Source of the DNA: Candidatus Micrarchaeota archaeon
Lineage (GTDB): Archaea > Micrarchaeota > Micrarchaeia > Micrarchaeales > CABMGC01
DNA length: 64,000 nt
Assembly: GCA_027334165.1 (NCBI GenBank)
Contig: DAHWXM010000019.1
Span: 9,983-73,982 of the forward strand
Direction of reading: 5' to 3'
How positions within the stretch are numbered: the stretch's first letter is position 1; every line of letters starts with the position of its first letter. The notes beneath the pieces were generated by a model that saw only the letters and a program-made list of their open reading frames with translations, had not been told where the DNA came from and did no database searches. Positions 32,386 through 59,532 of the stretch are shown here, one piece after another. Both the position numbers and the translations under genes were made by a program.

Positions 32386-32673
32386 TTAATTCTTGATGGA
32401 TAGATAGGTACCATAGCCGTCCGATAACACGTAATAATCTCCAGACTGGCGCATGTTTACCCCATCAAGCAGCGCGGCTTGTACGGCAAAAGGATAACAG
32501 GAAGGGGCCGTCTGGACAAGCCCCACGTACATACTAGATTTTATTGATGCTGATGCCTGTCCATAGTATATAAGATTGGATTGGAGCACGGACAGCGAAG
32601 AGAGGGCCGACGCCGTGTATATAGAACCAGCAAGGACGGTTAGCATGATCGAAATACCATAAAATGACATCAT
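32386..32673 (-). CDS. Small protein with N-terminal hydrophobic helix, last gene of pilus operon (minor pilin-like)
   Basis: 4-nt overlap with upstream pilin gene; hydrophobic N-terminus, Ser-rich remainder. Confidence 0.55.
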   Translation of the reverse strand: MMSFYGISIMLTVLAGSIYTASALSSLSVLQSNLIYYGQASASIKSSMYVGLVQTAPSCYPFAVQAALLDGVNMRQSGDYYVLSDGYGTYLSIKN

Positions 32674-33065
32674 GCACCAGCCTCGAGACAGAGAAACACG
32701 TATTTATTTCCAGCATGGAACGGGAAACATGAACCCATCCGGTTGGACAAAGATGCACCGATGCTACCCCCATTCACTGACACCAGCGACATGTTTTCAA
32801 ATCCATAAATGCCAGCGTATTCGTCAAGATAGTTGATTATGCACGACGAACCGTTTATTATGAATGACGAAATGCAAGTTTGCATCGAGGCGTTTTCGGT
32901 GGCTTGACGTACAAAATCGTAGGCCGTGTATGACCACATCAACTCCCTGTTTGAGGCAGAGAAGTTTGCAGTGTATCCTGAAATGCAGTAGGCGATTGTA
33001 CACAGTAGCGATAACGAAAAGGATAGCGATAGGAGCGATTCGAAAGTAGCTAATTGTAACCGCAT
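32670..33065 (-). CDS. Type IV pilin-like protein
   Basis: MRL|QLATFE followed by a hydrophobic helix; Cys-containing extracellular domain. Confidence 0.65.
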   Translation of the reverse strand: MRLQLATFESLLSLSFSLSLLCTIAYCISGYTANFSASNRELMWSYTAYDFVRQATENASMQTCISSFIINGSSCIINYLDEYAGIYGFENMSLVSVNGGSIGASLSNRMGSCFPFHAGNKYVFLCLEAGA

Positions 33066-33069
33066 GCAT

Positions 33070-34350
33070 TCACGTTATTTCTATCTTTGAGCCGTTGTAA
33101 TATACTGTAGAATCCACGCCATTACTGTCATTAAGCGATATCAGTATCACGAATGTGAATCTGACGTGTGGTGTGCAGATTATGGAATCATGGGACATGC
33201 GGCAGGAGTCGTTTGTTGGTTCTGCTGTGCGAATCATCACTGAGGAAGCATTTTCATAAGCTGCAATGGCCTGTTGGATCGCGGATTGTTCTGGTGAGGA
33301 TATGTCTGTTTTGTTGTAATACCATAGAAGATACTTAGCATTAGTCATAGCCCGCGAATATTCTACATACGAATTCGGATTCACATTAAGCATTGATCCA
33401 GAGTGCCAGAGCAGAGGGCCTTCTGCAGTCCCGGAATATGAGACATTCTGGATTGATGCCGTTCCGACAACCTCGTTTGCGGAGTACACGAAGTCTCTGC
33501 TCATGGAACTTATCACGGTGGAAAGCATTTCGCCATTCGGAGTTGTCAGGTTTATTGTGAACGAGTACGAATATCTTGGGGCATTTGCGGTATTTGTACC
33601 GACTTCCTGGAAGCTAGTGTTTTTTGGGGTTATGCAGAACGTCTCCGTCTGACTTCCGCCTCCGGTATAACAACCTGTAGAGAATATGTTGTACTCCCAT
33701 GCATTATAAGTTCCGCATTGTGAATTGATTCCGTACGGATTGCCCCAGAAGCCTATCTGTGTGCAATGGCCCCATTCGTTAAATTGTGATACATTTTCTG
33801 ATGTGCTTTCGTTGTATACTATGGATTCGCTGATATTCGATATGGTTGCGGAGTATTGAGAGTCAGAGTAGGCATAGGCTGCCGAAAGGGCGTCGGTGTA
33901 GGAATAATATGTGCCGTTGCGCTTTGTGCCTGCACAACGTATAGAATAGTTAATCGATGCATAGTCAATACCGGCTCTCGTGGGCATAAACCGAATTTCT
34001 GAGAGATACATGCCAGAAAAATTACCGTGTATGGAAGTCGTATTAAAAAGAATGGCACTTGACGATAGTGAGAAGTTCAACGAGCCAGAACCGCAGCCAT
34101 ACCCAAGCGCCTGTGCGACCGCTTCCTTCCCCACAGAGGAGTTTAAAGGCATCGCAAAAGAGAATGATGGAGCATCAGTACTGTCATTAATCGGTACAAT
34201 CTGTGTCGTGACGTATGAAAAATTTTCCGATGAAAATGTTGAATGCTCAAGGCTTATGCCCTTCGTGTACAGCGATATTGCGCTCAGGCTCAGAATGCTC
34301 ACTGCAGATAGGATGAGCATGAATTCTATACTCGTTTGGACACGCATCAT
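33070..34350 (-). CDS. Large pilin-like/adhesin protein with class III signal peptide
   Basis: MMRV|QTSIEFMLILSAVSIL; Ser/Thr/Asn-rich with many N-x-S/T sequons and paired Cys; ATGA overlap with upstream gene. Confidence 0.75.
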   Translation of the reverse strand: MMRVQTSIEFMLILSAVSILSLSAISLYTKGISLEHSTFSSENFSYVTTQIVPINDSTDAPSFSFAMPLNSSVGKEAVAQALGYGCGSGSLNFSLSSSAILFNTTSIHGNFSGMYLSEIRFMPTRAGIDYASINYSIRCAGTKRNGTYYSYTDALSAAYAYSDSQYSATISNISESIVYNESTSENVSQFNEWGHCTQIGFWGNPYGINSQCGTYNAWEYNIFSTGCYTGGGSQTETFCITPKNTSFQEVGTNTANAPRYSYSFTINLTTPNGEMLSTVISSMSRDFVYSANEVVGTASIQNVSYSGTAEGPLLWHSGSMLNVNPNSYVEYSRAMTNAKYLLWYYNKTDISSPEQSAIQQAIAAYENASSVMIRTAEPTNDSCRMSHDSIICTPHVRFTFVILISLNDSNGVDSTVYYNGSKIEIT

Positions 34351-34697
34351 TTCAACACCATTACGTAGGATTTTCTGGATACTGTTATTATGCGGCATAT
34401 CTTCCCGGGGCAGATCCCCACATCGTTTGCTCCGAAAAACAGGGCGGAGAAATTTCCTTGTTTGGCCATGGAGTTGGTAAACGTAGTAAATTCAGAGTAG
34501 TTCATTCCGGTGGCATAACCTGTGGCAATAATTTTCTGGGAGTCTGCTGCGATGGCCAGAGCAGAGGCCTGCACGAGCGCTGCGTGCCGAATGTACTTCA
34601 TGCCTGTGGTTCCCCCGATAAGCAGCAGTAGTATTGCAAATAGGGTTAACGGCACACCGATTGCAAAGTCCATGTTTTGTATCAATGTATCAACCAA
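34347..34697 (-). CDS. Pilin-like protein
   Basis: IQNMDFAIGVPLTLFAILLLLI hydrophobic N-terminus, C-terminal C-x3-C; start uncertain (34697, 34685 or 34673). Confidence 0.55.
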   Translation of the reverse strand: MVDTLIQNMDFAIGVPLTLFAILLLLIGGTTGMKYIRHAALVQASALAIAADSQKIIATGYATGMNYSEFTTFTNSMAKQGNFSALFFGANDVGICPGKICRIITVSRKSYVMVLK

Positions 34698-34890
34698 TGT
34701 TAATGCAGCCCGCGCATACGGATATTGAAGATGAATTGCCGGATTCTGATGATGCGAGCGCTGATACATAGTCTGCGACGACGTGCGAGAATCCGTAAAG
34801 ATGCGATATCATCGGTATGGTCGTTGCTGCAAACATTATCACCAGGCACATGGTGAGCAGCATTTCTATGCTCAATTGCAGTTTTTGCAT
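34690..34890 (-). CDS. Short type IV pilin-like protein
   Basis: MQKL|QLSIEMLLTMCLVIMF; real start ATG 34890. Confidence 0.65.
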   Translation of the reverse strand: MQKLQLSIEMLLTMCLVIMFAATTIPMISHLYGFSHVVADYVSALASSESGNSSSISVCAGCINIG

Positions 34891-35252
34891 GACATCACGT
34901 ATTGCCCCACACCGTCGGGTGAGATCTCGAGCTCTTTGTACACACCATCTGGACACAGCGCATTTCCTGCGACTCGGATTTCGGCGACAAAATCGAATGT
35001 ACCGTATCCGTTTTTAATCCCGTGGCCCGTGAAGGTCGAATTGCATGCCCCTACAGGAACATACGCAGTAAAGGAGGTATTGGTACCGGAAATGTGGTTG
35101 TTTATAATGAATGAGAATTCTGAAAACGCGTACGATGCGATGTGCCATTCCACAAATGAGGATTTCGCTGCGAGCATGCTGATTGAGGATAGCAGGGCCA
35201 GCGCCGCTACCCCAATGTAGATCAGCCACTCAACAGACAGTTGCAGGCGCAT
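34872..35252 (-). CDS. Type IV pilin-like protein
   Basis: MRL|QLSVEWLIYIGVAALAL. Confidence 0.7.
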   Translation of the reverse strand: MRLQLSVEWLIYIGVAALALLSSISMLAAKSSFVEWHIASYAFSEFSFIINNHISGTNTSFTAYVPVGACNSTFTGHGIKNGYGTFDFVAEIRVAGNALCPDGVYKELEISPDGVGQYVMSCKNCN

Positions 35253-35267
35253 GTGGATGTACCCCAA

Positions 35268-35540
35268 TCAGGCAGAACCGGCGGATAGGCGTGACAGTTG
35301 CTGCGATATTGCGGAGGTTATGCTGTAATTCGTCCCGTTTATGAGCACGTTGTTCGGGATAGTTGTTTTCAGTTTTACGATCATGACCAATGCCATAACT
35401 ATCACAATGCTCGCCGTAGCTATCATCATGACATATTCCAGAGAGCCTTGGGCCCTGGAAGCTCGAACCATCAGGGGTAGGGTCTTCACTTCCATAGGCA
35501 ACATCCCGTACACGACCTTTACATATTTTCTCAAATCCAT
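35268..35540 (-). CDS. Type IV pilin (class III signal, candidate major pilin)
   Basis: RASRA|QGSLEYVMMIATASIVIVMALVMIV; real start ATG 35540 or later. Confidence 0.78.
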   Translation of the reverse strand: MDLRKYVKVVYGMLPMEVKTLPLMVRASRAQGSLEYVMMIATASIVIVMALVMIVKLKTTIPNNVLINGTNYSITSAISQQLSRLSAGSA

Positions 35541-35548
35541 TTTATCAC

Positions 35549-36301
35549 TCATACAATATAAGGGGTGTAACTTGCCGATACTACCAGTATGGCAATGGCA
35601 ATTGCCACGCGTGGTATCGCATCGTACAGGATGTTCTTTGTGTCTGCCAGAGGATTCCTGAAAAATGCGTTTATTAGCATTGTAATCACTATGTAACATG
35701 CCAACACCAGAATGAAGTGTGACTGTACAGTGAGATAGCTGAAGGAGTTTATCGAAGAAGAAATCTCGAATATCGCCGTGCTTATGCCGCCGAACAGGGG
35801 AAGAAAGAAAGTAAGGCCCAGCATGGCTATGGAGTTCGCACTGCCGATCCGAGAGTTGAACGCATTGGTGCGCCTTGCACGCTCTTTAACACGCGCCGAG
35901 AACGCCGAGATTTGCCTAACAGAATGCTTCCTTCCCGAGAGACCTAGATGAAGCAACCACACGAATTCGGACAAAGTTGCATCGGCACTATATCGGGAAA
36001 GGGAGTCGGTGTCGCCGAATAGGAAACTGCGGATGAGCGGCGCAATCTTACCGGAGATTGGATGTGGAAGGGATGTTGCGCGGCGTATCGCCTTCCATAT
36101 TCCTGTGTCTTGAGAGGAAACAATGCTGTCAGCCAAAAGGGATAGGCCGGTATCGTTAACGTCGGCCCTCCTTGGCCGCAGAAAAAGCAGCGCGGCGCAC
36201 GCAAATGGGAACAGCAATGACGCCGGAACTTCTCGGATCAGGGCTAATGGTATCAAGATGACCTGAAGCAAGGTGAGCGGCAGTAAATATCTATCAAGCA
36301 T
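35549..36301 (-). CDS. Pilus membrane platform protein (TadC/ArlJ-like)
   Basis: TM-cytoplasmic helical domain-TM layout with FFLPLFGGI; second membrane gene after the ATPase. Confidence 0.65.
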   Translation of the reverse strand: MLDRYLLPLTLLQVILIPLALIREVPASLLFPFACAALLFLRPRRADVNDTGLSLLADSIVSSQDTGIWKAIRRATSLPHPISGKIAPLIRSFLFGDTDSLSRYSADATLSEFVWLLHLGLSGRKHSVRQISAFSARVKERARRTNAFNSRIGSANSIAMLGLTFFLPLFGGISTAIFEISSSINSFSYLTVQSHFILVLACYIVITMLINAFFRNPLADTKNILYDAIPRVAIAIAILVVSASYTPYIV

Positions 36302-37013
36302 GCAAAACCCTGTTTATAACTATGTTTAGCGCCAATGACATCGATGGAAGGAGTAGGAGCATCGCCATTGAAAACATAATCATTGATCCCGCAGTTTGTC
36401 CGAGTATGGCATTGCCTATGAACCCAAAAATGGCAAAGGACGGAAGCACGGTAGATACGAACATACCAAGAGTGGCATTCCTTTGGAGCATTCCTTCGGC
36501 ACGGGACATCTTCTCCGCGAGATCCATGTGTCTGGAGTCCAACACACCGCGAATTGACGCTCCTTCCTCGATGTTTGAACCGTGCAACAAGCCCCGCACC
36601 GCTTCTCCAGGCGCGGAGATAGAGCAAGATACAACTGCCTCGGGCAGCCGCATTCCGAACCTCGTTCTCTTGCGTATCTCGTCTACCGCTAGCTTTAATG
36701 CAGCCGAACTGGAGAAACGGGATATTTCGGCCAGTTTGCATAACGTGGGCAGATTAGACGCGTTTTCGCCAAACACACTGTCGAACGCGTAAAGAGCTTC
36801 TGCCCGAAGATGTGTTGCCCTCAGGTCATGCCTCGCGGAATTTACCGCGGCGTAGACGCCATAGGCAAATACGGATGACGATATTATTGATGCGTACATT
36901 ATGGCCGATGCAGTAAATATATGCGGGTATGTAATTACAAGTCCGATAGAAGTTCCGGAAAATAGGGATAGAAGTATGCGCCACTTATCGTTCTTGAAGT
37001 TCATATTCCGCAC
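36294..37013 (-). CDS. Pilus membrane platform protein (TadB/TadC-like)
   Basis: TM-soluble helical (EIRKRTRFGMRLPEAV)-TM layout; directly follows the ATPase. Confidence 0.65.
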   Translation of the reverse strand: MRNMNFKNDKWRILLSLFSGTSIGLVITYPHIFTASAIMYASIISSSVFAYGVYAAVNSARHDLRATHLRAEALYAFDSVFGENASNLPTLCKLAEISRFSSSAALKLAVDEIRKRTRFGMRLPEAVVSCSISAPGEAVRGLLHGSNIEEGASIRGVLDSRHMDLAEKMSRAEGMLQRNATLGMFVSTVLPSFAIFGFIGNAILGQTAGSMIMFSMAMLLLLPSMSLALNIVINRVLHA

Positions 37014-38515
37014 CCATGCCGTGCCAATTCTTCACTGAAGCCATCGATTCCGGCATTTTTGGCAATGACCATTTCGATGAACGATTTTTGCCGCTCGAAT
37101 TCCTTTGCGGCCAGGCGGACGGATATCCCGCGAATCTTTGCATAAACCCGGATGGCTTTCGAATCCTTAAGGTCATTCGTCAGCAAGGTGCCGTCAGAAA
37201 CGAGGTTGTCTATTCGCACCTTATCCTGGTCGCCCATGTTGATCCCCGTATCTGTTTCGGCACGGCTAAGCCAGTTATATTCGTACACGCGAGTTATCCT
37301 CCTCCCAATTGTGCCAAACTGGGAAAGGTGTATTGATAGGTCAAGCATGCTTATGCTCTTCGTGTCAACCCCCATTGGTCTTGTCATTAGGCGGCGTATG
37401 ACACCCATTGAATCATCTGGACTGTGCATAGTTGTTAGGAATTGAATGCCGAGGTTCGCTCCGGAGAACAGGTCTCGCGCCTCCTCCCCGCGGATCTCGC
37501 CAATTATAAGACAGTCCGGACGCAGACGCAGCGCGTTTATTACCTGTTCTTTTGTGGTTACGCGGCCCTTCTCCCCATAGAGGGACACGGAGTTCATGTA
37601 GTCCTTTAGACTTATCTCATGAATGTCCTCTTCCACTGCTATTATCCTCCTGCCCCGTGGCACAAGCCCAAGAAGGGTGTTTAGCATCGTGGTTTTTCCG
37701 CTTGCTGGTGCGCCAGAGATGACAATGTTCAACCCAGAAGCCACGCAGAACCAAAGATATGCCAATGTGCCGGCGTCCATCGTACCATTGCGTAGCAGCA
37801 GATCGGCAGAAACGCCGTCTTCCTTGCCAAGGCGTATGCTTGCTGCAGCGCCACTTCTCACGTATGGATATATCTGGGCGTGCACACGCGCGTCTCCATG
37901 CTGCACATCTATTATCGGACTGTCCTCAGAGAGTTCCTTCTCCGAGTCGAGTATCATCCGGTTTATATCATAGCGGAATGCCCCCGCATCCTTGAACTTA
38001 AGGTTGGTTACGCATCTCCCGTACTTTTTCGTATACACTGCAAGCGGAAGATCCGGTGAATTGACCTCTATCTCCTCTAGATGCGTCTTGTTTAGCAGTA
38101 GTAGGCTCAGCGGGCCGTGCCCGGCAATATCGTGGGCTACGAAAGGATACAGTTTGTCTGCCGTCTGCGCGTCAGCGTATCTGAGAATGGCGGCCTTTGC
38201 AAGGTGATATGCACTGCCCATCACATCGGTGGCTGGATCTGCGCCATCTGCAACCAGCGTGTCTATAACGTCACGCTTTGCTCTCTCCATCGCGCGGGAA
38301 TCCCATTCGCTGCCCTTCAATCCGTAACCCACAACGTACGCGTATCCATTCTTGCGTTTCACTATTGCGGACGAAGCGATATCTCCCAAACGCTCCACAA
38401 CGCTGCCGAAATCGAAATCGCACAGGCCATACGTAAGATGAGACGGCTCTTTTTCTATTGGCATGTTTTGGGGCCTTCCCCATGTTCCAAGGCTCCGGGC
38501 CAGTTTTTGTAGCAT
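37001..38515 (-). CDS. Type II/IV secretion (VirB11/TadA/ArlI-like) assembly ATPase
   Basis: Walker A GAPASGKT, Asp box AVEEDIHE, ALRLRPD, Walker B IIGEIRG, His box TTMH. Confidence 0.93.
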   Translation of the reverse strand: MLQKLARSLGTWGRPQNMPIEKEPSHLTYGLCDFDFGSVVERLGDIASSAIVKRKNGYAYVVGYGLKGSEWDSRAMERAKRDVIDTLVADGADPATDVMGSAYHLAKAAILRYADAQTADKLYPFVAHDIAGHGPLSLLLLNKTHLEEIEVNSPDLPLAVYTKKYGRCVTNLKFKDAGAFRYDINRMILDSEKELSEDSPIIDVQHGDARVHAQIYPYVRSGAAASIRLGKEDGVSADLLLRNGTMDAGTLAYLWFCVASGLNIVISGAPASGKTTMLNTLLGLVPRGRRIIAVEEDIHEISLKDYMNSVSLYGEKGRVTTKEQVINALRLRPDCLIIGEIRGEEARDLFSGANLGIQFLTTMHSPDDSMGVIRRLMTRPMGVDTKSISMLDLSIHLSQFGTIGRRITRVYEYNWLSRAETDTGINMGDQDKVRIDNLVSDGTLLTNDLKDSKAIRVYAKIRGISVRLAAKEFERQKSFIEMVIAKNAGIDGFSEELARHGCGI

Positions 38516-47357: not shown

Positions 47358-49082
47358 ATGGTTACGCTTGGCATACACGATGCGCACGATGCAGGTGCTG
47401 GCGCCGTTAGTGGGGGAAGAGTCATAGGCGCAGTTAATGAGGAAAGATTCACAAAACGCAAGAATGATGTAGGTTTCCCGGTAAGTTCCATAAGGTACAT
47501 CGTGGATGCCGCGGGAGACATAGATGACGTAGACAGCGTAGCTGTGCCTTGGATAGGAGGCAGTGCACTGTTTGCACGTATGTTTCCAGGACTTGAGGTT
47601 AAAAGAAGGCAGCTATGGCGCCGCGAGACCGGAAAGCCATCGCGCACCAGCATGAAGCTCAGGAATGTGGCGTTCAGACTCATTCAGGACCAGAAGCCAA
47701 AATGGCTTTGGCATCTTGCGGGAAAAAGCATTGGTGGTTATGCACTTTCAAGGAGGCTCACGCATTCAGGATTGGACAAGGAGATAGTATTTGTTGACCA
47801 TCACACTGCTCATGCGGCTGGCGCGTATTATGCATCGGGATTCAAAGAGGCATTAGTTGTAACACTTGACGGGGCAGGAGACGGTCTTAGCGGATCCATA
47901 TCTATAGGAGATAATGGTGCCCTCAAGCGCATCAAGGAGTTTAGGGCCAGTGCCAGCCTGGGAATCCTGTACGGCGCGGCGACTGTCGCGTGCGACATGC
48001 GCTATAGTGAGGATGAGGGAAAGCTGATGAGTCTTGCAGCGTACTCATATCCGGAGGAAATAAAGGAGTTGGACAAGATATCCATGTTCGACTCGCACAG
48101 GGGAGAACTCGTCTGCCATCAGGGTGCAAAATTCGAATTTCTTCTCGCTGAGCACATGAAGGACACATTGCTTTGGAAGTACAGCAGAGAGGCATTCGCA
48201 TATGCGGTGCAGAGGCACGTAGAGACCCAGGTACTGAAGATCGTGCAGCATTACATGAAAGAAACGGGCATACACAACGTTGCTGTTTCCGGGGGGCTCT
48301 TTTCAAACATAATAGTGAACATGCGGCTAAATGAAATGGATGGCATGAAAAACTTTTTCGTGTTTCCACAGATGGGAGATGGAGGACTTGCGCTGGGCGC
48401 GGCTTATTATGTCGACTTCCTTAAGAATGGGAGGTTCAACACCAAACAAGTAGAGAACATGAACTATGGCCCCGCATACACAAATTCCGAAATAGGAGAC
48501 GCACTGAAGAAACAAAGGAAAGGAATCGAGTATGAGGAGATAAAGGACATAGAAAGGTATGCCGCAGACAGAATGGTTGACGATAACGAGGTACTGCTGT
48601 GGTTTCAAGGCAGGATGGAATACGGTCCGCGTGCGCTTGGATGCAGGAGCATACTGTCATTGCCAGGCAACAACGACAACAGGACCAGGATAAACCTAAT
48701 TGTGAAACGGAGGCCGTACTACCAGCCGTTTGCTAGCACGATACTGGAGGAAGACGCGCCGCGGCTGCTGGAGCCGTACAGGGCAGGAACGAAGTTCATG
48801 ACTATAGGCTACAGGATAAGAAAGGAGCACATGGCGGATTTGGTTGCAGCATCGCACATAGATGGCACTACGAGGCCGCAGATGCTTGGAGAGGAGAATG
48901 GGCCGTACAGGAAGCTTATAGAGAGAATAAGGGAGCGCACGGGCATAGGCGCGGTGCTTAACACCAGCCTCAACAAGCACGGAAGGCCCATATCCATGAC
49001 CCCGGAGGACGCCATATGGACACTGATGAACACAGGTGCGACGAGCCTTGCGATAGGCAATTACTTTGTAACAAAGACCTAG
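47358..49082 (+). CDS. NodU/CmcH/TobZ family O-carbamoyltransferase
   Basis: GIHDAHD, EERFTKRK, DHHTAHA, LDGAGD, GDGGLALGA, GRMEYGPRALG.RS, HIDGTTRPQ, LNTSLN. Confidence 0.92.
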   Translation: MVTLGIHDAHDAGAGAVSGGRVIGAVNEERFTKRKNDVGFPVSSIRYIVDAAGDIDDVDSVAVPWIGGSALFARMFPGLEVKRRQLWRRETGKPSRTSMKLRNVAFRLIQDQKPKWLWHLAGKSIGGYALSRRLTHSGLDKEIVFVDHHTAHAAGAYYASGFKEALVVTLDGAGDGLSGSISIGDNGALKRIKEFRASASLGILYGAATVACDMRYSEDEGKLMSLAAYSYPEEIKELDKISMFDSHRGELVCHQGAKFEFLLAEHMKDTLLWKYSREAFAYAVQRHVETQVLKIVQHYMKETGIHNVAVSGGLFSNIIVNMRLNEMDGMKNFFVFPQMGDGGLALGAAYYVDFLKNGRFNTKQVENMNYGPAYTNSEIGDALKKQRKGIEYEEIKDIERYAADRMVDDNEVLLWFQGRMEYGPRALGCRSILSLPGNNDNRTRINLIVKRRPYYQPFASTILEEDAPRLLEPYRAGTKFMTIGYRIRKEHMADLVAASHIDGTTRPQMLGEENGPYRKLIERIRERTGIGAVLNTSLNKHGRPISMTPEDAIWTLMNTGATSLAIGNYFVTKT

Positions 49083-49110
49083 TGCAATGCCGGACGACAT
49101 GTGATCACAT

Positions 49111-50652
49111 ATGCGACAAAAAAAGGGCTGGATGGCGGGATCTTTCGCAGCGCTCAGGAAACCATATAACCTTGCGCTCATCGCGATAGTAGTGTACGCA
49201 CTGCTGTACTCCGTTGTCTTTGTGGGCGGGCCATCATATTACGGAGACGACAGCGTGTACCTTAATTATGCATATCAGGTAGTTCACGGCACTTTTACCG
49301 AGCACAGCGGGGATATTTTCAGTGTGAGACTACTGACCATATTACCTATAGCGTTATTCTATAAGACGTTCGGAGTAGGCTTGATGACGGATTCTGCGTG
49401 GGACATAGCTTCGTTTATAGGGCTAATAGCCGTGGCATTCCTAATGGGCAAGGAGTTGTACGACGAACGGGCAGGCGTTGTAGCCGCGCTTCTCACATCA
49501 TTCTTCCCAATGATAGTGATGCTCTCCGCAACCCCCAGTGATGACATACCGATGGCATTCGTCACCGCCCTCGCAATGCTGGCGCTGCTTTACGGTGAAA
49601 GGAGGGATTCCGGGCGGTGGTACTTCGCATCGGGCTTGCTGCTACTAGCCTCAGGACTCGTAACTCCCGAAGGTTTCATAATCTGCGTGGTGGCAATGGC
49701 ATACGTCGCCATAGAGTTTCTCAGGAAAAGGATTGCCATCAGTGGCACCACGCTTATGCTTCCGGCAGGTGTTGCGTTCGCATTCATGCTTATCGTGTTC
49801 GTCAATTCGTTCTATTCTAACCCGCTCATAACATTCACGCTAAACTCCCATTTCTACAGCGCCGTAGGGGGAAATGATACCATACCTTCAACGAACACGA
49901 ACCCGATGTACTACATAAACGTGATGTTCCCGCCGAACGCGCTTAATTTTTCGGGGTTTTTCTTTTACGCGTTGATTGCCGCGGCCATATATCTTGTTGT
50001 GGTACGACCAGATGGTACGTACTTCGTGCTTTTCTACTTCCTTGCGGCCTTCCTCTACTTGGAATTTGGACCCATGCACATTTCCCTGCACCCGTTCTCG
50101 TACCTTCTGAGTTACAGACTCCAGCGGTTTATGACACTCATAGCCGCCCCATTGGCAGTTGCAATAGGCATTGCAGTTTCGGATGTCGCGGCGCGAAGCG
50201 GAAAGACGCGGATGCGCCTGTTTGCGTACGCGCTCCTCGCACTTTTGATCTTCATGATCATATTGAACGCCGCCGCGATAAACCTTACGTGGTATCGTGT
50301 GCTTAGCTACGAACGCTACGACCAGCTCCAGGCAGCGGAATTCCTTGGCAGGATGCCCAACAGCACGATAATCTATTTCGCAGATGCATATCCGAACATA
50401 CCGATATACATGGGATTCAACAACATGAGCAGGTTCAGACCCTACTTCGCACTGACCAACTGCAGTTTCGTTTCGGCGGGAGCGTACGTTGTCGCACCCG
50501 CGCTGCCGCAGAACGGGATTAACTATTCGAAATTTGCATCCGCATGCGGAGGATGGATGGAGATCAATTACACACAGCCTGATTCGGTGCCTCCGCAGCA
50601 GATAGACAACATAGGAGGCTTCTCTGAACTTGCAGTGTATCGCGTAAAATGA
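49111..50652 (+). CDS. GT-C fold (PMT/ArnT-like) membrane glycosyltransferase
   Basis: First-loop YGDDSVY acidic pair, GKELYDERAGVVAALL..FFP, SDDIP, about 11-13 TM helices, C-terminal soluble domain. Confidence 0.8.
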   Translation: MRQKKGWMAGSFAALRKPYNLALIAIVVYALLYSVVFVGGPSYYGDDSVYLNYAYQVVHGTFTEHSGDIFSVRLLTILPIALFYKTFGVGLMTDSAWDIASFIGLIAVAFLMGKELYDERAGVVAALLTSFFPMIVMLSATPSDDIPMAFVTALAMLALLYGERRDSGRWYFASGLLLLASGLVTPEGFIICVVAMAYVAIEFLRKRIAISGTTLMLPAGVAFAFMLIVFVNSFYSNPLITFTLNSHFYSAVGGNDTIPSTNTNPMYYINVMFPPNALNFSGFFFYALIAAAIYLVVVRPDGTYFVLFYFLAAFLYLEFGPMHISLHPFSYLLSYRLQRFMTLIAAPLAVAIGIAVSDVAARSGKTRMRLFAYALLALLIFMIILNAAAINLTWYRVLSYERYDQLQAAEFLGRMPNSTIIYFADAYPNIPIYMGFNNMSRFRPYFALTNCSFVSAGAYVVAPALPQNGINYSKFASACGGWMEINYTQPDSVPPQQIDNIGGFSELAVYRVK

Positions 50653-50733
50653 AATGGATATCACATCGGCATGCAAGGTGCGGTAAGATTCATTAAAGTT
50701 TCGCGTTCATTATCGATTTGTGGAAGTGATGAT

Positions 50734-51243
50734 ATGAGATTTGCAAAACTAGTACTTGACAGGGTAGACAGGATAGTGCCTTTTCAGCGCGCGTACGCGC
50801 ACTGTGACATCCCGTGTGGCATATACGACCCCCACATGGCCCAGTTGGCGGCTCACACCGTTATAAGGATGGACATGCTAATAGCCGATGCGATGAAAAA
50901 CGGGGCGGATGATGCGGAGGGGAAGAACAAGATAGTCAGGTATGTAAGCATCAAGGAACAGCACGCAGAGATATGCAAGCATGAAGTTCGGGTACTGTGG
51001 GGAGATTACTTCAAGCCGGACCACGCGAAAGCACACCCGGAACTCAACGACCTCGTATGGAACATACTCAAACTGGCGTCAAAGGCCAAGCAGAGCACTG
51101 ATGTAAAGGCAGGCGAGGAACTACTCGAGAATGTGGAGAAGCTTGCAGAGATATTCTGGAAGACAAAGGGAATAAGCACATACAGAGCCCAGGCACCCTA
51201 CCCTACAGACCGTGAAATGGTGTACCCGAAGGTAGGCGCATGA
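50734..51243 (+). CDS. sodN: Nickel superoxide dismutase precursor
   Basis: Leader MRFAKLVLDRVDRIVPFQRAYA then Ni-hook HCDIPCGIYDP; KEQHAE, LWGDYFKP, IFWKTK. Confidence 0.95.
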   Translation: MRFAKLVLDRVDRIVPFQRAYAHCDIPCGIYDPHMAQLAAHTVIRMDMLIADAMKNGADDAEGKNKIVRYVSIKEQHAEICKHEVRVLWGDYFKPDHAKAHPELNDLVWNILKLASKAKQSTDVKAGEELLENVEKLAEIFWKTKGISTYRAQAPYPTDREMVYPKVGA

Positions 51244-51530
51244 CGCTCCTGCCGGTCTCTATATACAAGGTGAAGGACAACAGCATGATTCCTACCATAC
51301 TGGATGGAGATTACGTAATTTCCATCGGATGGTACGGCAACATAAGGCGCGGCGACATCGTTGTCCTTCGGCATCCTGCCGGAGCCATGAGATTAGTAAA
51401 GCGTGTAGAAAGGGTAGATGCAGATTCCGTGTATGTTGTTGGGGACAATCGTGCGGAGAGCGAAGACAGCAGAAACTTCGGTGCGGTGAAGAGACAGTCG
51501 CTTTTGGGGAAGGTAGTTGCGGTTATATAG
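51240..51530 (+). CDS. sodX: NiSOD maturation protease (S26 peptidase)
   Basis: SMIPT catalytic Ser, VKRV Lys, GDN...SEDSRNFG; ATGA overlap with sodN. Confidence 0.9.
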   Translation: MTLLPVSIYKVKDNSMIPTILDGDYVISIGWYGNIRRGDIVVLRHPAGAMRLVKRVERVDADSVYVVGDNRAESEDSRNFGAVKRQSLLGKVVAVI

Positions 51531-51598
51531 GTGCGTGGCATGCCAGCACCGGCCCCACATTTAATATCCTTATCGTCCGATAGATAGAATGTGTGTCT

Positions 51599-51820
51599 AT
51601 GGCAACTAGAGCAAATCCGAGAGAGGATATGGATCTCCTGTACCTGTCGGTCGGAGTCGTGGCGTTCAGCGTAATAGCCATCATAGCATTCGTGTATGGT
51701 TATTCTGATGCATTCTATCTGCTAGCCGTGATCGCCATCGTACTCGGATTCTACATGCTGCGCAGGCTCTCGGTTCAGAAGGAGGAGCAGGTAGAGAGAA
51801 AGACACCGAGACAGCGCTGA
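51599..51820 (+). CDS. Small two-helix membrane protein
   Basis: Two hydrophobic helices and a basic tail; 4 nt upstream of topA. Confidence 0.6.
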   Translation: MATRANPREDMDLLYLSVGVVAFSVIAIIAFVYGYSDAFYLLAVIAIVLGFYMLRRLSVQKEEQVERKTPRQR

Positions 51821-51824
51821 TTGG

Positions 51825-54050
51825 ATGAACAAGCTCATAATAGCGGAAAAACCGAGTGTAGCCTTAAGGCTGGCGCTCTCACTGGGAGACGGGCAGCCCA
51901 AAAGGAGTGCATTCAACGGAGTTAGCTATTACGAACTCCAAAAAGACCATGACACCTTGTTCGTGGTCGCGGCGGCGGGCCACCTCTTCACGCTTAGGCA
52001 GAAAAGCAAGGAAAGGGAGATACCGATCTTTGACATAGAGTGGATAGCTTCCTACAAAGTCAACGACAGTTCGTACTTTACGAAACGCTACCTTGACACT
52101 ATAGCGGAGATAGGGAAGCGCTGCACAGAATACGTCAACGCCTGCGACTACGACATAGAGGGCACGGTGATAGGGACTAACATAATAAAGTACGTTGTTT
52201 CTGGCGATGTGAACTCAGGCGTGGATTCCGACAAGATCAAACGCATGAAGTTCTCAACCACCACCAGGCAGGACCTTCTCAGCGCTTACGAGGGGTTGGA
52301 AGGATTTGACTCGAGCAATTTCGATGCCGGGGAGGCCAGGCACATGCTCGACTGGATGTGGGGCATAAACCTCAGCAGGGCACTGATACACGCCATGACT
52401 GCGGTAGGCGCGAAGAAGATACTCAGCATAGGCAGAGTGCAGGGACCAACGCTTTCCATACTATCCGAACGGGAAGCGGAGATACGAGACTTTGTGCCGA
52501 AGGACTTCTGGAGGATACTGATTGTAGCGTCTGGCATTGAATTCGAGAACACTAAGGGCAACTTCTTCGATAAGGCTGCTGCTGATGGTGCCCTCAAACG
52601 CACAGAAGGCGCAACGGTTACGGTCAAGTCCATAGATAGGAAAGAGAACAACATGAGGCCCTATCCCCCGTTCGACCTTACGTCACTGCAGCTCGAAGCG
52701 AGCAGAGTGTTTGGAATAGACCCTTCCAGGACACTCGCAATAGCGCAGTCGCTGTATGAGAAATCTTACATTTCATATCCTAGGACAACATCACAGAAGC
52801 TTCCTTACACACTAAATCTGCCCAGAATAATAGGCATGCTTGCGAAGAACGAAAAGTACAAGGCGCATGCGGAGATGCTCATCTCCGGATCGAGATTCAG
52901 GCCCGCAGAAGGGGCCAAGGCCGATGAGGCGCATCCGGCGATTTACCCTACGGGGGAGGAACCGAAGAGACTCGAGGGAGAAGAGGAAAGGATTTATGAT
53001 CTGATAACGCGTAGGTTTCTGGCATGCTTCGCCGAATATGCGGTGAGTGATTCGACCAGAATCGTGCTCGGCGCCACTGATGAGGAGTACGCGGCGAGCG
53101 GCAGCATAGTAAAGAAACAGGGATGGATGGAAGTGTACGGATATTACAAGCCGAAGGAGGCCGTACTGCCGGAGATGCGGGCAGGAAGTGAGGTTACTCC
53201 AGAAAGGATCTACTCGAAGAAGGGCGTCACCGAGCCGCCAAAGAGATACGGCAAGGCGAGCCTTATAGCGCTTCTTGAGAAAAAGAATCTCGGCACGAAA
53301 GCCACCAGGGCGGAGATAATAGACACGCTCTTTAGGAGAGGATACATAAAGGGCACCAGACTTGAAGTTACTGCGCTTGGGCTCAGCGTCTATTCGGCAT
53401 TGAAAAAATACTGCGCACAGATACTGGATGAGGACCTTACAAGAAAGCTGGAATCCGACATGGAGGACATAATGCGCGGAAATGCAAAGGAAAGTGCTGT
53501 GATAGAAGAGGGCAAGGGGATAATCCAGAGCCTGGTATCGGCATTCAAGGCCAACGAGAAGGGCATAGGCGAAGAGCTAAGAAAGGGGCTCAAGGAGTCA
53601 GAAGCGGCAAATGCACTAGGCAAATGTCCGAAGTGCGGCGGCAACCTTGTTATAAAGAGGTCATCAATTGGCAAGAACTTCGTCGGTTGCAGCAACTGGC
53701 CCGAATGCTCGGTAACGTATCCGCTTCCACAGGGTGCAGGGATATATCCTACTGGCAAGGTGTGTGAACTCTGTCATACACCAATAGTCAAGGTATTTAG
53801 GAAAGGCAAACGCGTCTTCCAGATGGACCTCGATCCCAACTGCAGCACGAAGAAGGACTGGGAGAAGCCTAAACCACAGGAGGGTGCGGCATCGGCACAA
53901 GGCGCGCAGGCGGAAGGTGCTGGGGCGCACGTGGTACCGCCGCGATCCGCGGGGAAGGTTTCCGGAAAACGCACAGGGAGCACGACACCCAGGGCCAGAA
54001 AGAAGACATCTAGAAATGCGGGCAGGGATACTGCTAACAAGCAGCAGTGA
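51825..54050 (+). CDS. topA: DNA topoisomerase IA
   Basis: IIAEKPSVA, ACDYDIEG, SIGRVQGP, ISYPRT catalytic Tyr, EAHPAI, LGTKATR, C4 zinc ribbons. Confidence 0.96.
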   Translation: MNKLIIAEKPSVALRLALSLGDGQPKRSAFNGVSYYELQKDHDTLFVVAAAGHLFTLRQKSKEREIPIFDIEWIASYKVNDSSYFTKRYLDTIAEIGKRCTEYVNACDYDIEGTVIGTNIIKYVVSGDVNSGVDSDKIKRMKFSTTTRQDLLSAYEGLEGFDSSNFDAGEARHMLDWMWGINLSRALIHAMTAVGAKKILSIGRVQGPTLSILSEREAEIRDFVPKDFWRILIVASGIEFENTKGNFFDKAAADGALKRTEGATVTVKSIDRKENNMRPYPPFDLTSLQLEASRVFGIDPSRTLAIAQSLYEKSYISYPRTTSQKLPYTLNLPRIIGMLAKNEKYKAHAEMLISGSRFRPAEGAKADEAHPAIYPTGEEPKRLEGEEERIYDLITRRFLACFAEYAVSDSTRIVLGATDEEYAASGSIVKKQGWMEVYGYYKPKEAVLPEMRAGSEVTPERIYSKKGVTEPPKRYGKASLIALLEKKNLGTKATRAEIIDTLFRRGYIKGTRLEVTALGLSVYSALKKYCAQILDEDLTRKLESDMEDIMRGNAKESAVIEEGKGIIQSLVSAFKANEKGIGEELRKGLKESEAANALGKCPKCGGNLVIKRSSIGKNFVGCSNWPECSVTYPLPQGAGIYPTGKVCELCHTPIVKVFRKGKRVFQMDLDPNCSTKKDWEKPKPQEGAASAQGAQAEGAGAHVVPPRSAGKVSGKRTGSTTPRARKKTSRNAGRDTANKQQ

Positions 54051-58296: not shown

Positions 58297-59532
58297 ATGG
58301 AATCAAACATGGAAGATGATTTAATAAACAAGGTTGCTGCAGGGCTTGTTGGTCTGCACAAGGTCGATGAGGCGGTGGAGCCTGCGGCTGCCGCGCGTGT
58401 CCGCAGAATGGCAGTTGAGAAGGCCACGGGAGCGAACTTGGCTGCGGTGGATGATTCAACGATGGATTATTCTGCGATACGCAACAGGAACGCCGAAAAT
58501 GTGATAGGCAGCACCAGGATACCGCTGGGTGTTGCCGGACCGCTTACGGTAAATGGCGAGTTTGCCGCAGGCAAGTTTTACGTGCCGATGGCGACCACCG
58601 AGGGTGCCCTAATAGCGAGTGTGAGCAGAGGCTCAAAGGCCATAACCGCATCCGGCGGGGCGAATGCGCGAATCATAGAAAACGGGATGAGCAGGGCGCC
58701 CGTGTTCGTGTTAGATTCGGTAAGCGAGACCGGAAAGTTCCTCGAATGGGTAAAACTCAACACACAGGGTATACGGAAGGCGGCCGAAGCCACAACGACC
58801 CACGGGAAGCTTATCGACATTACACCTTTTGCCACGGGCAACAACGTCTGGCTCCGCTTCAGGTACGATACCGGAGATGCGATGGGCATGAACATGGTGA
58901 CAATAGCGACCGAAGCGGCGTGCGCGCACATAGAAGAAAATTTCAGTGGCGCCAGGTGCATCGCGGTGAGCGGCAACATGTGCTCGGACAAGAAGGAATC
59001 ACTGGTGAACAACCTCTACGGACGCGGAAAGAGCGTGCTTGCGGACGCATTCGTAAGCGGAAAAGTCCTCGATGCTGTTTTTGGCACAACCGCTGCGGCA
59101 GCAAATGACGTAAACGTAAGGAAAAACCTTCTAGGAAGCGCAAGGGCAGGCAGCTTCAAGTACAATGCCCATTTCGCCAACGTAGTCGCCGCGGTATTCG
59201 CGGCCACCGGACAAGACATTGCACAGGTCGTGGAGAGCAGCAGCGGATACACGTGGACAGAGGTGCGCGGCGATGGCCTTTACATCTCAGTGACCTTGCC
59301 TTCCCTAGAAGTCGGTACGGTTGGTGGTGGCACATCCCTGCCTAGCCAGAGCGGTGCGCTCTCTATCATGGGGGTTGCGGGGGGCGGAAAACCGGCAGGA
59401 AGAAACGCACTGCGGCTTGCTGAGATAATATCAGCTGCGGTACTGGCGGGAGAGCTTAACCTTGTCTGTGCGCTCTCTGCTCGCGATCTTGGGAAGGCGC
59501 ACAAGAAGCTTGGCAGGAACGTACGAGAATGA
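58297..59532 (+). CDS. hmgA: HMG-CoA reductase, class I (NADPH)
   Basis: [43 protein letters not shown]-terminal catalytic His (AHKKL). Confidence 0.95.

Follow-up and report, generated by a model that had tools for sequence, protein, structure and literature searches.

Does an archaeon of the phylum Micrarchaeota encode a working nickel superoxide dismutase (NiSOD) together with the peptidase that matures it, and how did such genes come to lie on its chromosome? The question is raised by a sodN-sodX gene pair in a 64,000-nucleotide stretch of archaeal DNA (hereafter the window), which belongs to a 21-contig bin that is 83% complete (genome G000). NiSOD with its SodX partner is a textbook system. 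A preliminary description of this DNA, made from the sequence alone, had set the pair against archaeal SODs of the Fe/Mn type only. That contrast is out of date, as publications on archaeal NiSOD go back to 2021: the available part of one survey counts 26 archaea with NiSOD (Sutherland et al. 2021, bioRxiv 10.1101/2021.01.12.426412), and the accessible parts of later papers place it in DPANN, Asgard, TACK and Thermoplasmatota (PMC10783094) and in Lutacidiplasmatales (PMC9287336). NCBI annotation also already names NiSOD in Micrarchaeota metagenome-assembled genomes. The pair in G000 is an ordinary find, common in related archaea. Our main reading, to which we give a probability of roughly 90%, is that sodN and sodX would form a functional two-gene NiSOD module in a Micrarchaeota (DPANN) genome, inherited within the lineage and apparently the only superoxide-removing enzyme of the cell.

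Table 1 Features of the sodN-sodX locus (positions in the window)
Feature	Position	Strand	Basis or remark
Block of PMT_2-like glycosyltransferase, sodN and sodX, ~2.4-2.5 kb	49083..51560	.	Missing from the corresponding site of congener G007
PMT_2-like membrane glycosyltransferase, 513 aa	49111..50652	+	Pfam PMT_2, E 3.4e-8; upstream neighbour within the variable block
Shine-Dalgarno-like GGAAGTGA	50722..50729	+	Read from sequence, 4 nt upstream of the sodN ATG; putative function
sodN, nickel superoxide dismutase precursor, 169 aa	50734..51243	+	Pfam Sod_Ni, NCBIfam TIGR02753, AF2 model
Propeptide MRFAKLVLDRVDRIVPFQRAYA, 22 aa, ends A-Y-A	50734..50799	+	Predicted SodX cleavage site Ala22|His23
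Ni-hook HCDIPCGIY, residues 23-31 (mature His1, Cys2, Cys6, Tyr9)	50800..50826	+	Read from sequence
SodN C-terminal extension, residues 147-169	51172..51240	+	Missing from Streptomyces chains; predicted beta-hairpin
sodX, S26-type NiSOD maturation peptidase, 96 aa	51240..51530	+	TIGR02754, Peptidase_S26
75-aa ORF, hydrophobic by translation	51593..51820	+	No Pfam family; conserved neighbour of topA
DNA topoisomerase I (topA), host core gene	51825..54050	+	Topoisom_bac, E 3.6e-118

The enzyme, its maturation peptidase and its metal

SodN matches Pfam PF09055 (Sod_Ni; E 5.5e-45, 153.5 bits, cut-off 25) and NCBIfam TIGR02753 (sodN; 164.1 bits, curated cut-off 90). A longer frame, opening at the ATG at 50671, would give 190 aa; the leaders of SodN homologues, whose starts were chosen by script, are mostly 18–27 aa, which favours the start at 50734, and the Shine-Dalgarno-like sequence also supports this start rather than 50671. 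The AF2 model of SodN (pLDDT 85.6) is predicted to adopt the four-helix-bundle fold of the solved NiSODs: NiSOD chains filled the top 16 places among the Foldseek matches (E 7.5e-8 to 1.6e-6), and comparison with the Streptomyces structures, at 41–44% sequence identity, gave target-normalised TM scores of 0.88–0.94.

The predicted cleavage site is strongly conserved. His23 aligned to the first residue of the mature chains 1t6q and 1q0d from Streptomyces. Of 89 relatives, 88 have Ala at position −1, and every one has Ala, Val or Gly at position −3. From His23, the predicted mature N-terminus starts HCDIPCGIYDPH, in which the NiSOD hook pattern H-C-x-x-P-C-G-x-Y can be read, with the His first after the putative propeptide. 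All nine hook residues are identical in 83/89 relatives, and H23, C24, D25, P27, C28, G29 and Y31 are invariant in our alignment (A1). The enzymes of Streptomyces coelicolor and S. seoulensis (1T6U, 1Q0D) carry the same hook, H-C-D-x-P-C-G-x-Y, right after the cleavage site; they likewise have a propeptide at the N-terminus and a small S26 peptidase, SodX, encoded alongside.

The archaeal protein differs from the Streptomyces enzyme in several respects besides its host. Its leader has 22 aa, whereas that of Streptomyces has 14, and its mature chain has 147 aa as against 117. An insertion of about eight residues separates helices 1 and 2, and the chain ends in a conserved extension of 24 residues, predicted to form a beta-hairpin, that is in no solved structure; the alignment to PDB chains stops at query residue 145. 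In the AF2 model, the strands of the extension span residues 149–153 and 161–165 (block pLDDT 81–89), and alignment A1 shows no variation at Y156, P157, T158, V163 and P165. The long NiSOD form with this conserved, predicted hairpin lacks a solved structure.

SodX passes both NCBIfam TIGR02754 (sod_Ni_protease; 70.4 bits, curated cut-off 63.25) and Pfam Peptidase_S26 (E 3.4e-19, 69.9 bits, cut-off 22.9). Its ATG overlaps the sodN TGA by 4 nt (ATGA, 51240–51243). Ser15 (codon 51282–51284) and Lys54 (codon 51399–51401) form the Ser/Lys dyad, and these two residues and Pro18, in the S-M-x-P and K-R boxes, are identical in all 82 aligned relatives; G68, S74 and D76 are conserved in at least 95% of them, S77 in 77 and R78 in 74. 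The complete gene pair, the 22-aa leader, the intact hook and the adjoining S26 peptidase with its dyad had all been pointed out in the preliminary description, and each is borne out here, both proteins scoring above their NCBIfam cut-offs and far above chance level.

Could SodX instead be the general signal peptidase of the cell, next to sodN by coincidence? No other Peptidase_S26 match occurs in the genome, SodX scores above the cut-off of the bacterial signal peptidase I model as well (67.4 bits, cut-off 47), and the SodN cleavage site fits the general Ala-x-Ala rule. The lack of a second match says little, however, since the Peptidase_S26 model misses two of four archaeal control genomes. 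The best-scoring model for SodX is the dedicated TIGR02754; at 96 aa, it has by its profile match only some nine residues in front of the catalytic Ser, too few for a membrane anchor; and sodX follows directly 3′ of sodN in 66/89 loci, across both domains. We therefore consider a general signal peptidase very unlikely and take SodX to be the dedicated NiSOD peptidase.

Given these features, the module would work as follows. One message probably serves both genes, with sodX translation coupled through the ATGA overlap that is seen in the sequence. SodX, a soluble S26 peptidase, would cut the 169-aa precursor after Ala22 at the Ala-x-Ala site. By analogy with the Streptomyces enzyme (1T6U, 1Q0D), the cut would expose His23 as residue 1; the Ni-hook would then consist of its amine, its imidazole, Cys2 and Cys6. 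A NiCoT permease whose gene lies on another contig would probably let nickel in, cycling between Ni(II) and Ni(III) would dismutate superoxide, and peroxiredoxins (four AhpC-TSA matches in G000) would clear the peroxide.

The nickel supply had been left as a gap in the preliminary description, which saw no transporter. None is indeed encoded within the window, but elsewhere in G000, at C2:28255–29094 on another contig of the bin, we found a NicO/NiCoT permease (Pfam PF03824; 274.3 bits, cut-off 27.7), and its 359-aa ORF contains RHALDADHI and LGFDTASE, which we take to be NiCoT signatures of the histidine/aspartate kind expected within a transmembrane segment. We infer that this permease supplies nickel to SodN. 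NicO matches occur in 3 of 41 relatives, two of them over the cut-off, and a NiCoT permease is found in only 2 of 13 NiSOD-bearing relatives (G000 and G019); it is thus not a general nickel route and does not track NiSOD. G000, at 83% completeness, gave no match for NiFe hydrogenase or urease alpha. Nor did it yield a terminal oxidase (COX1 or cytochrome bd), so that superoxide would reach the cell from outside or arise from an undefined source.

The host and the variable block

The setting of the pair is archaeal, in agreement with the DPANN-like host that was proposed before. Other products encoded in the window include a proteasome subunit, FttA, Rad50, RFC, aRF1, LonB, topoisomerase VI-A, Spt5-NGN and HMG-CoA reductase. 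The adjacent topoisomerase I served to place the contig taxonomically: 21 of its relatives carry organism names, and 19 of these names are Micrarchaeota, Micrarchaeia or Micrarchaeaceae. Rfam found only a 5S rRNA and one tRNA across the window.

An enzyme of the Chloroflexota type looks out of place among DPANN genes at first glance, and the genome is a 21-contig bin; the pair might then come from another organism and have been joined onto an archaeal contig by assembly or binning. Three contigs of other runs speak against this by bridging both junctions of the pair: one from X2 (record 4; 49192–52166, 3 differences), one from X4 (record 23; 50060–52166) and one from X5, of a second study (record 25; 49002–52365). 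These independent contigs span the order glycosyltransferase-sodN-sodX-topA, and the X5 strain does so with 83 differing positions over 3.4 kb and no listed insertions or deletions. There are no assembly joints or loose ends within 49200–52100, GC is flat (0.48–0.53 over the pair versus 0.46–0.56 in the flanks), and 12 other genomes of the order hold the same sodN-sodX pair. The bridging contigs confirm that the assembly is continuous at this locus, and we regard an artefact as so improbable that it can practically be set aside.

The surroundings of the pair vary. In congener G007, which carries Fe/Mn SOD, the corresponding locus (L092) reads carbamoyltransferase, 75-aa ORF, topA and 312-aa ORF; in place of the glycosyltransferase-sodN-sodX block, about 120 bp separate the carbamoyltransferase from the 75-aa ORF. 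A 16-mer common to both genomes, TTAATATCCTTATCGT (window 51561–51576), marks the right edge of the block. The 75-aa ORF was also found upstream of topA in G003, as in G007 (tblastn). There are no repeats flanking the block at its edges, and around 48800–51900 only short two-copy direct or inverted matches occur; Pfam detected no integrase or transposase families among the 64 ORFs of the window. In the loci of nine relatives, none of PMT_2, the 75-aa ORF and topA lies within 1.5 kb of sodN, which means that sodN has no conserved neighbourhood. From the opposite side, the eight ORFs around the G007 Fe/Mn SOD (L097) have no counterpart in G000 at E 1e-10, and one 27-residue match appears at E 1e-2. 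An 'empty' Fe/Mn SOD site in G000 is thus not demonstrable; the L097 region may be variable or unassembled.

Relationships of SodN

Identity of the window SodN rises from 41–44% with Streptomyces NiSOD to 47–56% with Chloroflexota and 54–68% with Micrarchaeota-titled records, and reaches 71% within the genomes of relatives. The actinobacterial affinity that had been suspected from the segments LWGDYFK and IFWKTK finds no support, because both fall in family-wide invariant or nearly invariant columns and so do not discriminate between NiSOD types.

For a SodN tree, we collected rows with the scan patterns AHCDIPCG and HAE[IL][CV]KHE under a cap at the best 80, and both the patterns and the cap left out Actinobacteria and Cyanobacteria. 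The window SodN falls within a 26-row clade that is all-archaeal and mainly DPANN-labelled (support 99/91), in which Micrarchaeota form their own large sub-clade. The next starred clade out, of 51 rows (97/93), adds Chloroflexota (14 rows) and Patescibacteria; in this tree, which holds no actinobacterial rows, these two appear to be the nearest bacterial relatives of sodN. The tree is unrooted, and the direction of transfer is therefore unreadable.

The preliminary description had inferred inter-domain transfer into this genome. In its recent form, this would mean that the genome or its immediate ancestors received sodN-sodX directly from a bacterium. In its favour, the Archaea/Bacteria label needs seven changes across the family on the careful tree, all seven forced by starred branches, and several bacteria-to-archaea transfers of NiSOD are reported in the available part of Sutherland et al. 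(2021, bioRxiv 10.1101/2021.01.12.426412). The position of the pair also varies among congeners, and it sits in the ~2.4 kb block that G007 lacks. Against a recent import, however, no bacterial row enters the 26-row clade and bacteria first join in the 51-row clade; the best SodN matches, at 57–73% identity, bear archaeal names in 8/9 organism-named rows; the GC of the locus is in line with that of the host; and neither an integrase among the window ORFs nor flanking repeats were found. The all-archaeal clade, together with the presence of Sod_Ni in 42/301 genomes of the phylum, indicates that sodN is inherited within the lineage rather than freshly imported from the other domain. A recent import is thus highly improbable; inter-domain transfer belongs to the deep history of the NiSOD family, not to this genome.

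This placement fits earlier work in part. Joining Chloroflexota and Patescibacteria, the window clade matches the Chloroflexota-centred NiSOD clade of Sutherland et al. (2021) with its nested Patescibacteria and archaea, the latter including Woesearchaea, as given in the accessible part of that paper. The available main text of the same paper contains none of the words 'Micrarchaeota', 'DPANN' and 'sodX', whereas here Micrarchaeota form a sub-clade. The NiSOD of Marine Group II archaea is reported as sister to Cyanobacteria in the portion available of PMC10783094. Lutacidiplasmatales (PMC9287336) offer another archaeal and acid-adapted host, with NiSOD annotated as K00518; they belong to a different phylum, Thermoplasmatota, and the paper, in its available part, holds no analysis of sodX, the cleavage site or SOD replacement.

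Superoxide dismutase types across Micrarchaeota

The genome search for Fe/Mn SOD that had been called for gave no Sod_Fe_C match in G000, nor was there a desulfoferrodoxin match indicative of superoxide reductase; as the genome is 83% complete, Fe/Mn SOD counts as not found rather than absent. Across 301 genomes of the phylum, 42 have NiSOD, 192 have Fe/Mn SOD and 67 have neither; none has both, a zero overlap that was checked by hand and is counted over related, non-independent genomes. The Fe/Mn SOD counts take in two unpublished genomes (G038 and G214). The same division is seen in 41 relatives (13 NiSOD, 21 Fe/Mn SOD, 7 neither, none with both), and the 23 relatives that are at least 90% complete each have exactly one type, NiSOD in 6 and Fe/Mn SOD in 17. 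Within the order, the NiSOD module would take the place of Fe/Mn SOD, with one type or the other in a genome and never both. NiSOD occurs in 23/54 and 17/74 genomes of the order's two main families and in 6/12 of the genus. Lineage-wide presence, which the preliminary description had named as lowering the novelty of the find, is therefore largely though not universally the case, and the novelty is lowered.

These counts also bear on whether the pair is intact but silent or decaying, with the host cell of the symbiont handling superoxide. DPANN genomes are reduced, and no RNA runs are listed among the holders of window 49000–53000, which gives no evidence either way on expression. Decay is hard to reconcile with two open frames whose catalytic and metal-binding residues are conserved wherever they were checked, with the 83 differences of the X5 strain that bring no listed insertions or deletions, and with the retention of exactly one SOD type in 23/23 of the most complete relatives. 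We give little credence to a silent locus and retain the reading of a functional module.

The label on the runs containing this DNA is mine drainage metagenome. Mine drainage is an iron-rich habitat, which makes the motive of an 'iron-free defence', as put forward earlier, doubtful; an either/or pattern in such a habitat speaks against iron scarcity as the sole reason for using NiSOD. A tentative and broader reading, which we hold at slightly less than even odds, is that the SOD metal in the order is a strict either/or switch, flipped repeatedly even within genera by gain and loss of a sodN-sodX cassette at shifting sites. The cassette of G000 would have arrived or survived with the glycosyltransferase in the ~2.4 kb block, the NiCoT permease would seemingly have been kept for a sole nickel enzyme, and iron sparing would not be the driver in this iron-rich habitat.

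Micrarchaeota have been described with Fe SOD in the available part of PMC5864196, a published picture that the sizeable NiSOD minority of the order corrects. Tables S7/S8 of PMC10783094, as far as accessible, list Micrarchaeum only with Fe/Mn SOD or none. According to the part of PMC10783094 at hand, Marine Group II archaea show the same choice, each clade having either NiSOD or Fe/MnSOD and near relatives being separated by switches; they differ in phylum and habitat label from the DPANN Micrarchaeota of mine drainage. The strict either/or of Marine Group II recurs in an unrelated archaeal phylum. If the tentative reading of a repeatedly flipped switch is true, the order would offer a clean natural system for non-orthologous metalloenzyme displacement in genome-reduced symbionts.

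The sodN–sodX gene pair and its predicted products

The preliminary description had reported a complete nickel superoxide dismutase (NiSOD) system, consisting of sodN and the maturation peptidase gene sodX, and every checkable particular of it proved correct. The sodX start lies inside the sodN stop codon (ATGA). An alternative, longer sodN frame starts at 50671; since the SodN leaders of relatives have about 18–27 residues (starts chosen by script), 50734 is the better start. In Pfam, the first ORF matched Sod_Ni (E 5.5e-45) and the second Peptidase_S26 (E 3.4e-19). Against the NCBIfam equivalog models, SodN scored 164.1 bits with sodN (cut-off 90) and SodX 70.4 bits with sod_Ni_protease (cut-off 63.25). 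The pair is an ordinary system, correctly called.

Coordinates of the gene pair and of other features (window numbering unless a contig or locus is named; G000, the window's own genome; G007, a congener)
Feature	Position	Strand	Remarks
SD-like GGAAGTGA			ends 4 nt upstream of the sodN ATG
sodN	50734–51243	same as sodX	ORF, 169 aa
sodN leader			22 residues, MRFAKLVLDRVDRIVPFQRAYA, directly before HCDIPCGIY
Ni-hook HCDIPCGIY	50800–50826		read from sequence
SodN residues 147–169	51172–51240		conserved extension, PYPTxRExVYP
sodX	51240–51530	same as sodN	ORF, 96 aa
Carbamoyltransferase (NodU/CmcH-like)	47358–49082		
Its paralogue	G000:C20:30299–31978		
Segment within topA	52137–52942		extra depth, loose ends, one joint
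Joint within topA	52444 to 52923		481 other letters between
HMG-CoA reductase	58297–59532		
Six ORFs in a row	32386–36301		95–442 aa, no Pfam family
T2SSE/FlaI-like ATPase gene	37001–38515		
NiCoT/NicO match	G000:C2:28255–29094 (locus L011, 1333–2412)		274 bits, outside the window
Fe/Mn SOD neighbourhood	G007:C10:18500–27000 (locus L097)		8.5 kb, 8 ORFs

Residues 23–145 of SodN align with residues 1–115 of mature Streptomyces NiSOD chains (PDB sequences, E ~1e-26), and therefore His23 would be the future N-terminal His1. The AF2 model of SodN, built from 14 sequences, had a pLDDT of 85.6, the leader and hook being its low-confidence part. All of its top 16 Foldseek matches were NiSOD chains (target-normalised TM 0.88–0.94, 41–44% identity); the first match after these had an E-value of 0.15. 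Mature SodN differs from Streptomyces NiSOD in length (147 versus 117 aa), in a short insertion that follows helix 1 and in a conserved C-terminal extension, in which Y156, P157, T158, V163 and P165 are invariant among 14 sequences and which is predicted by the model to form a beta-hairpin. This extension is absent from all solved NiSOD chains (117 aa), and mature lengths were 137–155 aa in 89/89 relatives examined.

We compared the hook and cleavage site in 89 SodN sequences, taken from the window, nine relatives and 79 named records. Of these, 83 have HCDIPCGIY as the hook. Ala occupies position −1 in 88, and position −3 holds Ala, Val or Gly in 89/89, as in the Ala-x-Ala rule for type I signal peptidases. 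Ser15, Pro18 and Lys54 are invariant across 82 SodX relatives, which also conserve a G-D-N...S-x-D-S-R box. In 66 of the 89 loci, sodX comes immediately after sodN and shares its strand. It lies within 1 kb on that strand in 7 and elsewhere in the locus in 9; the remaining 7 loci, one of them stopping 37 nt past sodN, yielded no sodX. SodX was the sole Peptidase_S26 (Pfam) match in G000 (83% complete). With this model, which misses two of four archaeal control genomes, a separate archaeal signal peptidase I was not detected.

In the proposed mechanism, sodN and sodX would be co-translated from one message and SodX would cleave SodN after Ala22. The freed His1 amine and imidazole, together with the Cys2 and Cys6 thiolates, would then bind nickel, and Ni(II)/Ni(III) cycling would remove superoxide. 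The overlap and the conserved residues can be read directly in the sequence, and the chemistry follows from Streptomyces structures; for this organism we infer that cleavage, loading with metal and activity occur.

A polymorphic site in an archaeal genome

The window is C16:9983–73982 of a genome of 816 kb in 21 contigs (completeness 82.9%, contamination 0.5%). Its other genes are archaeal housekeeping genes, including those for a proteasome subunit, FttA, Rad50, RFC, aRF1, LonB, topoisomerase VI-A, Spt5-NGN and HMG-CoA reductase. GC content is 0.48–0.53 across the pair and 0.46–0.56 in its surroundings. For the topoisomerase I directly downstream, 19 of the 21 organism-named entries among the best 120 relatives are Micrarchaeota, Micrarchaeia or Micrarchaeaceae. 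Six public runs contain the stretch, four of them under the label mine drainage metagenome and the other two under sediment metagenome; four of the six were examined for contig continuity. Single contigs covered 49192–52166 in run X2 (3 differences), 50060–52166 in X4 and 49002–52365 in X5, from a second study (83 differences). All three cross both junctions of the pair, and mis-assembly, which the preliminary description had raised, is thereby excluded to the extent that contig evidence allows. The sole joint and all loose ends in the four runs lay at or before 49002 or at or beyond 52137, within topA. The extra depth, loose ends and joint that contigs of all four runs show within topA probably reflect related strains or conserved topoisomerase segments from other community members.

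The neighbours of the pair were conserved in none of nine relatives' loci. G007, a congener with an Fe/Mn SOD, has the order carbamoyltransferase, 75-aa ORF, topA and 312-aa ORF, in which some 120 bp separate the carbamoyltransferase gene from the 75-aa ORF; at this gap G000 carries a PMT_2-like glycosyltransferase, sodN and sodX. The right edge of this variable block is defined by a 16-mer that both genomes have upstream of the 75-aa ORF; neither flanking repeats nor recombinase genes were seen at the site. The relatives G003 and G009 have sodN–sodX on contigs other than that of topA. This site shows an insertion/deletion polymorphism in a congener, and within the genus the pair has either moved or undergone gain and loss. 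The neighbourhood of the G007 Fe/Mn SOD has no counterpart in G000, and that gene too may sit in variable DNA. The two carbamoyltransferase paralogues of G000, one of them the left neighbour of the block, are 38% identical over 577 aa. Elsewhere in the window, the six-ORF run and the nearby T2SSE/FlaI-like gene may form an archaeal pilus or surface-structure cluster.

Distribution and phylogeny of NiSOD

Among 41 genomes of the order, G000 included, Sod_Ni was found in 13 and the Fe/Mn SOD profile, Sod_Fe_C, in 21; none had both, and the seven with neither were 63–88% complete. The 23 genomes at least 90% complete each had exactly one type (NiSOD in 6, Fe/Mn SOD in 17). The order shows a strict either/or of the two SOD types. 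The window's genus is mixed in this set, with NiSOD in 6 of 12 genomes and Fe/Mn SOD in G005 and G007. When 301 genomes were sampled evenly from the phylum, Sod_Ni occurred in 42, including 23/54, 17/74 and 1/65 genomes of families f1, f3 and f9 and 0/107 of 27 other families. Sod_Fe_C occurred in 192; none had both, by hand comparison of the lists, and 67 had neither. Genus g20 is likewise mixed (NiSOD and Fe/Mn SOD in 6 and 3 of 10, respectively). The Fe/Mn counts include two unpublished genomes (G038 and G214), without which the overlap is unchanged. Because the genomes are related, this zero overlap is a pattern rather than a statistic.

A scan limited to one genome per species gave at least 590 SodN relatives. 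The best 80 loci supplied 79 to the tree, one lacking the motif; record titles mark 46 as archaeal and 31 as bacterial. Near relatives were favoured by the scan patterns and by the choice of the best 80, and for this reason Actinobacteria and Cyanobacteria are missing from the resulting unrooted tree (89 rows, 151 columns). The window's SodN falls in a clade of 26 rows (support 99/91), none bacterial: 13 titled Micrarchaeota, two Marsarchaeota, one Parvarchaeota and one Woesearchaeota, the window and eight of its relatives. Chloroflexota (14 rows), Patescibacteria and a small number of others join in the next starred clade (51 rows, 97/93). The Archaea/Bacteria label requires seven changes on this tree, all forced by starred branches, and therefore inter-domain transfer is real for the NiSOD family. 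The earlier proposal of such a transfer holds at that level but not for this gene singly, which, judged from the tree, is common to a DPANN clade. From an unrooted tree sampled in this way, the direction of transfer and the question of type are only partly answered.

Nickel, oxygen and published context

Whole-genome searches of G000 (83% complete) found no Fe/Mn SOD, superoxide reductase, COX1 or cytochrome bd. Four AhpC/TSA matches were found, and these proteins could remove the peroxide. NiFe hydrogenase and urease alpha were likewise not found in these searches, so that, of the nickel enzymes sought, NiSOD alone was found. As the preliminary description says, the window shows no nickel transporter, but the genome does have one, since contig C2 carries a NiCoT/NicO gene, a 359-aa ORF containing RHALDADHI. 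Since only 2 of 13 NiSOD-bearing relatives gave a NicO match, a link between permease and SodN is inferential. The permease gene adjoins a 420-aa ORF that, by eye only, resembles a second HMG-CoA reductase gene.

According to Sutherland et al. 2021 (bioRxiv 10.1101/2021.01.12.426412), sodN had not previously been identified in archaea; they report 26 archaea with sodN and several transfers from bacteria to archaea, and they describe one half of the family as centred on Chloroflexota, with Patescibacteria and Woesearchaea nested within. A 2023 study (PMC10783094) describes NiSOD in DPANN, Asgard, TACK and Thermoplasmatota and reports that marine group II archaea have either NiSOD or Fe/Mn SOD; Micrarchaeum appears in Tables S7 and S8 of that study only with Fe/Mn SOD or none. 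NiSOD is reported in Lutacidiplasmatales (PMC9287336), Fe SOD in Micrarchaeota (PMC5864196) and sodA only in two Micrarchaeota (PMC8773360). Our literature search found no paper with both 'Micrarchaeota' and 'NiSOD' in its text; NCBI annotation of Micrarchaeota and Micrarchaeaceae MAGs already includes proteins named 'superoxide dismutase, Ni'. What is worth keeping is the either/or of SOD types in the order, the insertion/deletion at this site in a congener, and the NiCoT permease in the same genome.
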